1,855 nt of DNA from Escherichia phage ECO95 1-6-1: the sequence record OR845648.1, one strand, 5' to 3'. Shown one piece after another: positions 1,227 through 1,610 of this stretch. Made by a program: the position numbers and the translations under genes. The notes beneath the pieces were generated by a model. That model ran no database searches and was not told where the DNA came from. It saw nothing but the letters and a program-made list of their open reading frames with translations. Within the stretch, counting starts at the first letter, position 1. Each line of letters starts with the position of its first letter.

Positions 1227-1236
1227 ATTCTGACGG

Positions 1237-1267
1237 AGACGGGCGGGCAACCGCCCGTTTCTTTTCC
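1237..1267 (+). terminator. Rho-independent terminator of the 308-aa gene
   Basis: Perfect 8-bp GC-rich stem ACGGGCGG (1239-1246) / CCGCCCGT (1251-1258) around a GCAA tetraloop (1247-1250), followed by the T-rich tract TTTCTTTTCC (1258-1267). Begins 11 nt after the stop codon. Confidence 0.65.
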
Positions 1268-1610
1268 GGTAAAGGATGTCGCCGGGCTCCTCTTTTTACT
1301 GCGCCGGCTGACGCGGCGCGGCAGGAACGCTGCCTGTGGTCAGTGTCCCGCGTCCGGCGGGCACGGGACGGGCGCTTTTACCGCTCCCGGCTGGCACCGG
1401 TGACAGTGTACGCCAGCCCGTCGCCCTTTTCTGATGAACGCCCTTCAAGCCGCTTTCGCGGCATAGCCTTGCCGTCAAAAAGACGACGGCTGCGATATTC
1501 CACGGTCGGCCTGACCCGTTACCGGACGCGGTGAACAGCCCACAGGCCGCGGGGAACGGGCGCCACAGGGGCGCCCTCCCGGTGCCCTCTGTAAGAGAAG
1601 GAGTGCTGTT
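1268..1610 (+). promoter_or_regulatory. GC-rich hairpin-dense intergenic element; candidate ssDNA promoter (Frpo/ssi-like) or structured leader upstream of the methyltransferase
   Basis: No credible ORF with an RBS. Successive inverted repeats: GCGCCG 1301-1306 / CGGCGC 1314-1319; GGCAG 1320-1324 / CTGCC 1330-1334; GTCCCG 1345-1350 / CGGGAC 1364-1369; GCCGC 1449-1453 / GCGGC 1458-1462 (loop TTTC); GCCGTC 1471-1476 / GACGGC 1485-1490; GGGCGCC 1558-1564 / GGCGCCC 1570-1576. GC content is visibly higher than in the flanking coding sequence. Confidence 0.4.
1596..1603 (+). promoter_or_regulatory. Ribosome-binding site for the methyltransferase CDS
   Basis: AGAAGGAG, with the AAGGAG core 7 nt upstream of ATG at 1611. 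Confidence 0.75.

Follow-up and report, generated by a model that had tools for sequence, protein, structure and literature searches.

In a conjugative leading region, an F-type copy of the class 3 single-stranded DNA promoter very probably precedes the gene for an M.EcoGIX-family methylase

Introduction

Promoters that work in single-stranded DNA (ssDNA) explain how anti-defence genes are switched on within minutes, before the second strand is present, and then fall silent. Class 1 of these elements (Frpo1 and Frpo2 (= ssiD) of F, ssi1-3 of ColIb-P9) consists of GC-rich, non-coding stretches of ~300 nt upstream of leading-region genes. They fold in the transferred strand into a single long hairpin whose apical part is rich in A/T, and Frpo/ssi elements are active only as ssDNA. 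Frpo is also known for the synthesis of primer RNA in complementary-strand replication. Class 2 (ssp2) is found 5' of klcA/ardB and of ardA, has a clear TTGCAT-15-TAAGAT signal, and includes Frpo'4 (Samuel et al. 2024) and 'Frpo3' (bioRxiv 2025.04.03.647016). Class 2 acts as a replication roadblock, an activity that is reported to be lacking in ssp3, the class 3 element (bioRxiv 2026.01.09.698686).

Class 3 is the hairpin 5' of M.EcoGIX in pESBL (Wen et al., NAR 2025; PMC12672017). That paper reports a start site mapped by 5' RACE to the predicted hairpin promoter of pESBL and early induction in transconjugants as seen by RNA-seq. Induction is described there as transient, and as prolonged if the conversion from single- to double-stranded DNA is delayed. 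The paper also describes class 2 and class 3 as conserved in F, with induction of the M.EcoGIX-homologue operon in RNA-seq (PMC12672017), and ssp3 has been used as a working ssDNA promoter in F (bioRxiv 2026.01.09.698686). Here we analyzed a 384-nt spacer that had been predicted, from its letters only, to be an Frpo/ssi-type single-strand promoter upstream of a methyltransferase gene.

Results

We compared the window, that is the whole 1,855-nt stretch of DNA analyzed (record OR845648.1), to plasmid sequences. It is 98.4% identical to F (NC_002483.1), 98.9% to pSFO157 and 93.2% to pESBL 53186-55026, and it matches more than 5000 plasmid records, of which ~80% are typed conjugative. The locus is an IncF/IncI conjugative leading region. 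The conjugative setting with nearby transfer functions on which the original prediction depended is borne out, with oriT/traM located ~12 kb downstream in F and ~15.6 kb downstream in pSFO157. All leading-region genes of pESBL, F and pSFO157 lie on the + strand and point towards oriT/traM. Because the known ssi elements (ssiD of F and those of ColIb) align with the minus strand at these loci, the transferred strand corresponds to the minus strand of the window. This strand is the template for all leading-region genes.

The spacer (positions 1227-1610) exactly fills the interval from a DUF1281 gene to a DNA methylase gene, an arrangement shared by pESBL, F and pSFO157. The DUF1281 gene (300-1226, + strand; annotated, Pfam PF06924, E 3e-49) ends with its stop codon at 1224-1226. 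The methylase starts with an ATG at 1611-1613, and its 5' part fills the rest of the window (1611-1855, + strand; Pfam PF01555, N6_N4_Mtase, E 1.4e-40; 227 aa in full). By direct reading, a ribosome-binding site AAGGAG is located at 1598-1603 on the + strand, 7 nt before the ATG at 1611. [quoted passage not shown] At 65.9% GC, and 68.7% in its core (1301-1600), the spacer is indeed GC-richer than both flanking genes, as had been predicted (54.3% in DUF1281, 55.1% in the methylase part). The GC content peaks at 0.77 in 100-nt windows.

The predicted density of short perfect inverted repeats was likewise confirmed. We found nine distinct perfect hairpins in the spacer (stem 5-8 bp, loop 3-12 nt): a terminator-like 8-bp stem at 1239-1246/1251-1258 and hairpins at 1301-1319, 1320-1334, 1347-1361, 1351-1370, 1449-1462, 1459-1474, 1471-1490 and 1558-1576. 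Counting nested ones, there are 17 perfect hairpins, compared to 6.4 ± 3.1 in 500 dinucleotide-preserving shuffles, only two of which reach 17. A long imperfect inverted repeat (I1) pairs 1328-1357 with 1522-1551 (30 nt, 80% complementary).

Following DUF1281, a terminator-like hairpin can be read directly from the + strand at 1236-1266, which is also present in the fold described below. Its stem ACGGGCGG/CCGCCCGT of 8-11 bp encloses a GCAA loop and is followed by a TTTCTTTTCC tail. A terminator consensus scan of the window did not list this hairpin; our guess is that maximal stem extension consumes some of the T run. In diverged homologues, the corresponding position is occupied by another GC hairpin. 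The gene-distal edge of the element is marked by the motif GATGTCGC at 1275-1282, which all 14 homologues retain unchanged. Across the three leading regions, its only + strand copy is located at this element, and its minus strand copies comprise one unrelated match in F and one in pSFO157. A related motif, GCGACATCC, recurs in L027 and in two published candidates, Frpo'4 and Frpo*3.

A + strand open reading frame at 1223-1534, called by PGAP as a 'hypothetical protein' in F, pSFO157, pESBL and most of the records listed, offers another account of the spacer, namely that it encodes a protein of ~101-103 aa and that its GC richness reflects coding. The frame is open in the window, but it changes register in 11 of 13 homologues (1-7 times in each of these). 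A 1-nt insertion already shifts it in L004 and L029, whose spacers are ~95% identical, and most homologues at 72-78% identity contain 4-5 register changes while their DNA stays conserved. A Pfam search with the ORF product returned no match, the ORF crosses the terminator-like hairpin, and the product is arginine-rich, as expected of an open frame in GC-rich DNA. A coding function is extremely improbable on these grounds, and the comparison of homologues suggests that the ORF is most likely a spurious call.

We next consider the spacer as ssDNA. Folding of the whole spacer gave -102.2 kcal/mol for the + strand (z -3.6) and -106.1 kcal/mol for the minus strand (z -4.9), and none of the shuffles matched the stability of either strand. 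A stable, extended fold that goes beyond scattered short hairpins, as had been anticipated, was found when both strands were folded. When 300-nt stretches were folded stepwise along the window, 1231-1630 was the only segment below -75 kcal/mol, with the minimum of -89.4 kcal/mol at 1301-1600 on the minus strand. This value lies below the cutoff with which Wen et al. mined for such elements, a transferred-strand (T-strand) 300-nt fold below -75 kcal/mol. Applied to the T strand of the pESBL leading region, with DNA parameters, 300-nt windows and the -75 kcal/mol cutoff as in their study, the scan gave exactly six segments, one of which is the homologue of our spacer. This first segment (4400-4799, -90.5 kcal/mol) adjoins the ATG of the methylase (4782); the rest comprise two ssi elements and segments upstream of klcA, ssb and ardA.

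Sequence kinship with the Frpo/ssi family, which the original prediction had also proposed, is absent. A sensitive blastn search of the window against five known elements (F ssiD, ssiE and ColIb-P9 ssi1-3) gave no match in 1227-1610, and comparison of the spacer to 13 published candidates revealed nothing beyond short motif similarity. Class 1 copies are present in this plasmid lineage as well, and three were readily detected in pSFO157 (L001 21478-22072, 24759-25354 and 30062-30658); the only match of the spacer near such a region was weak and on the reverse strand (64% over 110 nt, E 0.005). In the comparison with class 2 we obtained a 21-nt match of window 1272-1292 to Frpo'4 (E 0.064), and Frpo*3 matched over 50 nt (E 0.003); the class 2 copies of pESBL and pSFO157 did not align with the spacer. 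We thus rejected membership in class 1 or class 2, because the alignments contain no similarity beyond a short motif. The function is not refuted by this lack of similarity. The spacer resembles class 1 in its length, composition and non-coding nature, in its position upstream of a leading-region gene and in its folding in the transferred strand, where a stable extended stem-loop precedes the gene as in Frpo. It differs from class 1 in that its fold is branched and in that it has no clear -35. With class 2, it shares the plasmids, the strand, a similar function and, in the case of Frpo'4, the distal-edge motif GCGACATCC, but not the clear promoter signal. As there is no sequence similarity to Frpo/ssi, the spacer would work like Frpo but stand outside the family.

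The spacer core is 98.5% identical to F, 96.4% to pESBL and 96.0% to L043 4472-4771. It occupies the same slot as class 3 of pESBL and ssp3 of F, between DUF1281 and the 227-aa N6_N4 methylase and adjoining the ATG, and we see no substantive difference from class 3 of pESBL: it appears to be the same element in an F-like backbone. We equate the spacer with the M.EcoGIX hairpin of Wen et al. because of this homology and the repeated scan, rather than from published coordinates. Homology, energy scan and literature together make it very probable that the whole spacer (1227-1610) is an F-type copy of the class 3 ssDNA promoter (ssp3) upstream of an M.EcoGIX-family methylase, with the minus-strand fold as the active form. 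The single-strand promoter interpretation is thus supported with respect to function, in terms of class 3 and its literature, whereas the proposed kinship in sequence with Frpo/ssi did not hold. Early expression of the methyltransferase in a recipient, another part of the prediction, is supported by the induction upstream of M.EcoGIX published for pESBL and F. Location, homology, fold, conservation, covariation and strand bias derive from our analysis; ssDNA-dependent induction and the mapped start site are taken from the pESBL/F literature.

The spacer core bears a sign of selection. In diverged homologues the spacer core is 72-78% identical and the methylase third codon positions only 53-62%; compared to pESBL, the respective values are 96.4% and 72%. 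A consensus fold derived from the homologues has a closing stem, P1, formed on the minus strand by a gene-distal arm (1328-1367) and a gene-proximal, template-side arm leading into the methylase (1515-1551). P1 corresponds to the inverted repeat I1 and contains compensatory pairs (columns 251-291 of alignment A2); for example, CG is exchanged with UA in 6 sequences, GC with UA in 6 and AU with GC in 5. Inclusion of second copies brings in a third P1 sequence variant in which pairing is still kept. Two inner branches are enclosed. P2 (1445-1514, minus strand) ends in an apical hairpin GCCGTC...GACGGC and contains the near-invariant blocks GGGTCA.GC.GACCGTGGAATA and TATGCCGCGAAAGCGGCTTGA; 98-100% of its cells are paired with hardly any variation, and several of its pairs are G.T on the minus strand only. 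P3 (1370-1443, minus strand) has the base GGGCG/CGCCC and an apical stem TGGCGT/ACGCCA, and it carries a -10-like hexamer. A small hairpin beside the ribosome-binding site (1553-1579, minus strand in the consensus fold) contains the perfect 7-bp stem 1558-1564/1570-1576. Four of its pairs change on both sides yet stay paired, and 100% of its cells are paired.

Across 15 sequences, 98.4% of the cells in the consensus fold pair, compared to 35-44% in slid controls. There are 12 two-sided pair changes versus 5.7 ± 1.3 in shuffles (0/500), and 15 versus 8.1 ± 1.6 (0/500) when second copies are added; the structures were derived from the same alignments used for the pair counts, and the shuffle controls overstate the significance of the covariation because the homologues are related to one another. 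In the minimum-energy fold of the window, a long hairpin, the inner helices are 70-84% paired across homologues, without compensatory change. As these helices are not conserved, we prefer the branched consensus over the long-hairpin model: comparison of the homologues speaks for a closing stem with two inner branches rather than a simple long hairpin, with the limit that the inner region is almost invariant and the comparison thus cannot choose between the folds. The original prediction had envisaged a long imperfect hairpin with -35 and -10 hexamers on opposite arms; the extended fold is there, but the consensus is branched and lacks a clean hexamer pair. Class 3 may work as a three-way junction, with near-invariant inner branches that would bind a factor other than RNA polymerase.

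The fold has a strand preference, which bears on whether the structure acts in the DNA or in the mRNA. As an mRNA 5' leader (attenuator, stabilizer or translational regulator), it would be carried on a transcript from further upstream that reads through DUF1281. P1 and the hairpin beside the ribosome-binding site are nearly all Watson-Crick and would form in RNA, and the + strand consensus still reaches -101.5 kcal/mol with RNA parameters. If transcription starts inside the element, the hairpin 1553-1579 is in the 5' UTR whatever the promoter. In each of the 15 homologues, however, the minus strand has the more stable fold of the two strands, with consensus energies of -57.3 versus -46.5 (-56.0 versus -36.5 with second copies), and G.T cells number 65 compared to 5 A.C cells. 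Since G.T pairs are needed for P2, this branch forms only on the minus strand. An Rfam scan gave no family match (best 16 bits, threshold 138), the terminator-like hairpin with its T run separates DUF1281 from the element, and the start site reported for pESBL, from 5' RACE, is at the predicted hairpin promoter (PMC12672017). A role as mRNA leader is therefore highly unlikely.

Similarly, the spacer could serve mainly as an ssi signal for complementary-strand synthesis, through primer RNA or primosome loading, rather than as a promoter relevant to expression. Frpo was first described as promoter and primer source, in vivo priming from ssp1/Frpo transcripts is supported (bioRxiv 2026.01.09.698686), and replication proteins could bind the strongly invariant inner blocks, in which no sigma70 logic is obvious. 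Priming and transcription can coexist, however, and we regard a mainly replicative role as quite improbable compared to that of a class 3 promoter.

We searched the element for promoter-like signals. The best candidate feature is a -10-like hexamer, TACACT, at 1405-1410 on the minus strand, located in invariant alignment columns. It reads TAAAAT or TACAAT in diverged copies, with T1, A2, A4 and T6 invariant (TAnAnT), and it is the -10 of the top-scoring T-strand sigma70-like candidate in 14 of 15 homologues, L022 being the exception. TACACT lies in a 6x8 internal loop of the window minimum-energy fold, and in the alignment consensus TAnAnT occupies a hairpin loop, where no template strand faces it. 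In the long-hairpin fold the hexamer faces an invariant GGAATA (1496-1501, minus strand; TATTCC on the + strand). The duplex non-template strand would thus read TATTCC at this position, which is presumably unusable as a -10. No conserved -35 is found 15-19 nt upstream of TAnAnT, a stretch that is the most variable part of the core. Neither TTGAAG (29-32 nt from TAnAnT, with variable spacing) nor TTGACG in the P2 loop is convincing as a -35. Any assignment of particular bases to the -10 and -35 boxes, or of a start position, is tentative. As an alternative only, a composite TTGA|CC-18-GACACT could span the junction.

If the hairpin following DUF1281 acts as a terminator, the methylase would need its own promoter, and an ordinary duplex sigma70 promoter in the spacer could drive it, the hairpins being incidental. 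The + strand has weak candidates, namely TTGCCG-19-GATATT in the window itself and, among diverged homologues, TTGACC-17-TACAGG, but they vary among homologues and lack key -10 positions; no + strand candidate is consistent across them. A consensus scan for duplex sigma70 promoters found 0 sites in the whole window. A position-weight scan of both strands in 15 homologues yielded no conserved -35/-10 pair, and only the T-strand -10-like hexamer recurs. The fold is moreover kept through compensatory change, and the induction reported by Wen et al. is transient and lasts longer if conversion to double-stranded DNA is delayed (PMC12672017). An ordinary duplex promoter is very improbable in light of these findings, and a class 3 ssDNA promoter remains our preferred reading of the spacer.

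Discussion

A mechanism can be outlined for the class 3 copy described here. During conjugation the transferred strand (the window minus strand) would enter the recipient as ssDNA, where ~300 nt of the spacer would self-fold, with a closing stem of ~29 bp (1328-1367/1515-1551) around the two inner branches. Host RNA polymerase would read promoter-like features present only in the folded strand, of which TAnAnT at 1405-1410, unpaired opposite GGAATA, is probably the best candidate. Transcription would run towards the methylase with the folded strand itself as template, and the hairpin and T run at 1236-1266 would insulate the unit from DUF1281. Synthesis of the methylase may thus precede that of the complementary strand, and the enzyme could shield the plasmid from restriction as it comes in. 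Upon complementary-strand synthesis the fold would be lost, and expression would stop in the duplex because there is no usable sigma70 promoter there.

The gene served in this case is a promiscuous, single-strand-specific adenine methylase that blocks restriction. The element is already known, and its confirmation in an F-like window adds no new biology, because element and function were published in December 2025. Our analysis adds to the description of class 3 the covariation, the strand bias, the invariant -10-like hexamer and the branched consensus fold, and it reveals a lack of conservation of the annotated ORF. In RefSeq, thousands of plasmid records carry a 'hypothetical protein' over the element, a call that is very likely wrong. 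The P1 covariation, the transferred-strand bias, the invariant TAnAnT and cassette swapping could help to define the recognition of class 3.

A second hairpin is found in the window upstream of DUF1281 (95-285). Its fold is conserved by 14 compensatory pairs, with a -35 TTGCAT in duplex and a -10 TAnnGT in an internal loop. It is distantly related to class 2, whereas the spacer is not. The hairpin does not reach the published energy threshold and is absent from the six pESBL promoters reported; because it is sub-threshold and unreported in pESBL, it could be an unrecognized fourth kind of ssDNA promoter or a weakened relative of class 2. We tentatively suggest that the window holds two ssDNA-promoter cassettes which are exchanged as modules between leading-region genes. 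In other Enterobacterales plasmids a 95-285-type hairpin is located directly before the methylase, where it replaces the class 3 element, and class 3 copies in turn are also found before a DUF1281-type gene (L016) and before a different gene (L012).

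Position and composition of the methylase spacer

More than 5000 plasmid records, from Escherichia, Salmonella, Shigella and Klebsiella and ~80% typed as conjugative, match the window. Its identity is 98.9% with pSFO157, 98.4% with plasmid F and 93.2% with the IncI plasmid pESBL-EA11. In all three plasmids its locus forms the distal end of the leading region, with the gene order sopC or umuDC, DUF1281, spacer, methylase, DUF1380, klcA/ardB, ssb, psiB and oriT. The genes from sopC/umuDC to psiB are all co-oriented and oriT is located 12-16 kb downstream, in agreement with the conjugative setting originally proposed. 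F ssiD (Frpo) and ColIb-P9 ssi1-3 are found on the minus strand at these plasmid loci, in line with the direction in which F is known to be transferred. The window minus strand is thus both the transferred (T) strand and the template of the genes. Near-identical enterobacterial leading-region contigs also occur in assemblies named Oscillibacter, Collinsella, Oscillospiraceae and Streptomyces morookaense (loci L002, L003, L010, L023, L029 and L040), host names that most likely reflect mis-binning or contamination.

The non-coding spacer (1227-1610) fits exactly between the stop codon of the DUF1281 gene (300-1226, plus strand) and the ATG of the DNA methylase gene (1611, plus strand). Its GC content is 65.9% (68.7% in the core, 1301-1600), compared with 54.3% and 55.1% in the DUF1281 and methylase genes, respectively. 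It contains nine distinct perfect local hairpins with stems of 5-8 bp; a terminator-like hairpin directly after DUF1281 has an 8-bp GC stem and a GCAA loop, followed by TTTCTTTTCC. Counting nested versions, we found 17 hairpins versus 6.4 +/- 3.1 in dinucleotide-preserving shuffles, where 17 was reached in 2 of 500, bearing out the GC-rich, hairpin-packed character noted from the sequence. An imperfect 30-nt inverted repeat connects 1328-1357 with 1522-1551. Folded as single-stranded DNA, as the original prediction had suggested, the spacer reaches -102.2 kcal/mol (z -3.6) on the plus and -106.1 kcal/mol (z -4.9) on the minus strand.

RefSeq/PGAP annotates a 'hypothetical protein' of ~101 amino acids across the spacer (window 1223-1534, plus strand) in pSFO157 (L001 17230-17535), pESBL (L043 4394-4705), F (L044 5785-6090) and most records listed. 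Indels disrupt its frame in 11 of 13 homologues, some with spacers ~95% identical, it passes through the terminator-like hairpin, and it has no match in Pfam. The annotated ORF is most likely spurious, called because the DNA is GC-rich, and probably a systematic mis-annotation.

The spacer probably corresponds to a published single-stranded promoter

Wen et al. (NAR, December 2025; PMC12672017) describe RNA-seq of transconjugants after elimination of the donor cells. Six pESBL operons were induced early, each preceded by a T-strand hairpin at which 5' RACE mapped a start site. There are three hairpin classes: class 1 comprises ssi1-3 and Frpo, class 2 lies 5' of klcA and ardA, and class 3 lies 5' of M.EcoGIX. 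Classes 2 and 3 are stated to be conserved in F, where the operons of the KlcA and M.EcoGIX homologues are induced too. In a 2026 preprint (bioRxiv 2026.01.09.698686), the F elements are called ssp1a, ssp1b, ssp2 and ssp3; ssp3 serves there as a promoter of 'equivalent strength' that lacks roadblock activity.

The sole annotated DNA methylase in the pESBL leading region is a 227-aa PF01555 protein (54782-55465), preceded by DUF1281 and a homologue of the window spacer. Its distant homologues in Achromobacter, Bordetella and Paraburkholderia fit the reported relationship between M.EcoGIX and M.BceJIII. We repeated the mining of Wen et al. with 300-nt windows, DNA folding parameters, the T strand and a threshold of -75 kcal/mol. 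Exactly six segments of the pESBL leading region (L043) pass: 4400-4799 (-90.5 kcal/mol), adjoining the methylase ATG at 4782; 7040-7379 (-84.0), upstream of klcA; 8440-9219 (-99.8), upstream of ssb (ssi3); 13980-14339 (-80.8), upstream of ardA; 14740-15539 (-92.6), ssi2; and 18540-18939 (-85.4), ssi1. The region upstream of DUF1281 does not reach the threshold. Within the window, 1231-1630 alone passes (-89.4 kcal/mol). Position before the methylase, homology to the pESBL spacer and the folding scan together lead us to the tight inference that the spacer is the class 3 promoter in its F-type version. The prediction of a single-strand promoter before the methyltransferase was right in substance, and the element is already known as class 3/ssp3 of pESBL and F; early expression in the recipient agrees with the induction reported for the M.EcoGIX-homologue operon in F.

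In pSFO157 the corresponding segments pass, as do a third class 1 copy and a borderline segment inside a ParB-like gene (26540-26839, -76.1 kcal/mol). The third copy (L001 21478-22072) is 74-86% identical to the other two and lies upstream of a cluster of DUF3560 and SAM-methyltransferase genes that F lacks at this position. Seven Achromobacter, Bordetella and Paraburkholderia loci (L030-L032, L035-L038) encode methylases 60-67% identical, on the M.BceJIII side of the family. Their upstream 300-nt T strands fold at -67 to -96 kcal/mol, values of limited meaning given the high background GC, and these regions have no sequence similarity to any enterobacterial class.

The proposed resemblance to known Frpo/ssi elements was not found. 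Sensitive blastn of F ssiD, F ssiE and ColIb ssi1-3 against the window gave no match within the spacer, and we thus rejected it as a member of that family; the three class 1 copies of pSFO157 do not align with it either. With the candidates of Samuel et al. 2024 it has in common only a 21-nt motif (Frpo'4) and a 50-nt stretch (Frpo*3). An octamer, GATGTCGC, lies at the gene-distal border of the element (1275-1282) and is invariant in 14/14 homologues; it recurs as GCGACATCC in Frpo'4, Frpo*3 and the methylase locus L027. The element probably works like Frpo and is unrelated to it in sequence.

Probable selection on the fold of the transferred strand

Using the methylase as probe and one genome per species, we retrieved 40 loci, 11 of which carry a spacer homologue 71-78% identical (from Citrobacter, Raoultella, Enterobacter, Erwinia, Entomohabitans, Hafnia and Edwardsiella). 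Core identity is 72-78%, versus 53-62% at third codon positions of the adjacent methylase; this non-coding DNA is under purifying selection. Against pESBL, the core is 96.4% and the methylase gene 87% identical.

The T strands of 15 sequences share a consensus fold of 77 pairs, in which 98.4% of cells pair, compared with 35-44% in slid controls. Twelve pairs are changed on both sides, versus 5.7 +/- 1.3 in shuffles (0/500), counts made on sequences akin to one another and on a structure derived from the same alignment. Second copies of the element in three plasmids contribute a third version of the closing-stem sequence with pairing kept, raising the count to 15 versus 8.1 +/- 1.6. Covariation is found mainly at two sites, the closing stem P1 (1328-1367 with 1515-1551) and a small hairpin adjacent to the ribosome binding site (1553-1579).

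The minus strand outfolds the plus strand in 15/15 homologues, by 1-8.5 kcal/mol. Consensus energies (DNA parameters) are -57.3 versus -46.5 kcal/mol, or -56.0 versus -36.5 kcal/mol with the second copies included. Branch P2 depends on G.T pairs that are C.A mismatches on the other strand, and is therefore absent from the plus-strand consensus. Overall there are 65 G.T cells versus 5 A.C cells. Together, these comparisons favor the transferred DNA strand over mRNA as the target of selection.

Candidate promoter elements

The minimum-energy fold of the window itself is one long imperfect hairpin, whose inner helices are 70-84% paired across homologues, with zero compensatory change. In the alignment consensus, by contrast, two branches, P2 (1445-1514) and P3 (1370-1443), are enclosed by the closing stem, and the pairs of these branches are 93-100% kept and very rarely vary. 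As the inner blocks (GGGTCA.GC.GACCGTGGAATA, TATGCCGCGAAAGCGGCTTGAAGGGCG and CCCGTCCCGTG) are almost invariant, comparison gives no choice between the two folds.

A putative sigma70-like -10 hexamer, TAnAnT, reads TACACT on the T strand (1405-1410) and TAAAAT or TACAAT in other homologues. It is the -10 of the best-scoring sigma70-like candidate in 14/15 homologues. T1, A2, A4 and T6 are invariant and positions 3 and 5 vary, as would be expected if selection maintains a -10. Within the long hairpin, the hexamer occupies a 6x8 internal loop facing the invariant GGAATA (1496-1501), which would keep it unpaired at all times; in duplex DNA the sequence presented would instead be TATTCC, which does not function as a -10. 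No conserved -35 was found 15-19 nt upstream of the hexamer among the homologues. The window's own fold and the -10-like hexamer agree with a long hairpin presenting -35 and -10 boxes; the lack of a conserved -35 and of conserved inner helices does not. Alternatively, a composite promoter may combine TTGA|CC over the P2/P1 junction with (G/C)ACACT (1342-1347), 18-19 nt apart and with the latter in an internal loop of P1. Transcription would start near 1504 from TAnAnT and near 1544 from the composite junction.

A second hairpin and possible exchange of promoter cassettes

Upstream of DUF1281 there is a further conserved hairpin of the T strand (95-285, minus strand; -50.3 kcal/mol, z -3.1), with inverted repeat arms at 105-131/243-269 and compensatory change in 14 of 45 pairs among 13 homologues. 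Its homologues include the low-certainty candidates Frpo*1 and Frpo*3 of Samuel et al.; its homology to the class 2 core is weak. Its -35-like TTGCAT (140-145) lies within the duplex and its -10-like TAACGT (119-124; TAnnGT) within an internal loop, so that the design of an unpaired -10 is clearer here than in class 3. With this energy the hairpin fails the -75 kcal/mol cutoff, and the six reported pESBL promoters do not include it; it may be an unrecognized or weakened single-stranded promoter.

In other Enterobacterales plasmids (L005-L011, L014, L015, L018, L027, L028 and L039), a homologue of window 95-299 directly precedes an M.EcoGIX-like methylase, ~280 nt upstream of its ATG, in place of the class 3 spacer. 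The same gene thus carries different candidate promoter cassettes in different plasmids. Second, diverged class 3 copies are present at L016 1041-1260, L012 1559-1776, L020 1046-1264 and L024/L025 2205-2333. The copy in L016 precedes a DUF1281-type gene and that in L012 a different 155-aa gene, which suggests that class 3 is a reusable cassette untied from the methylase.
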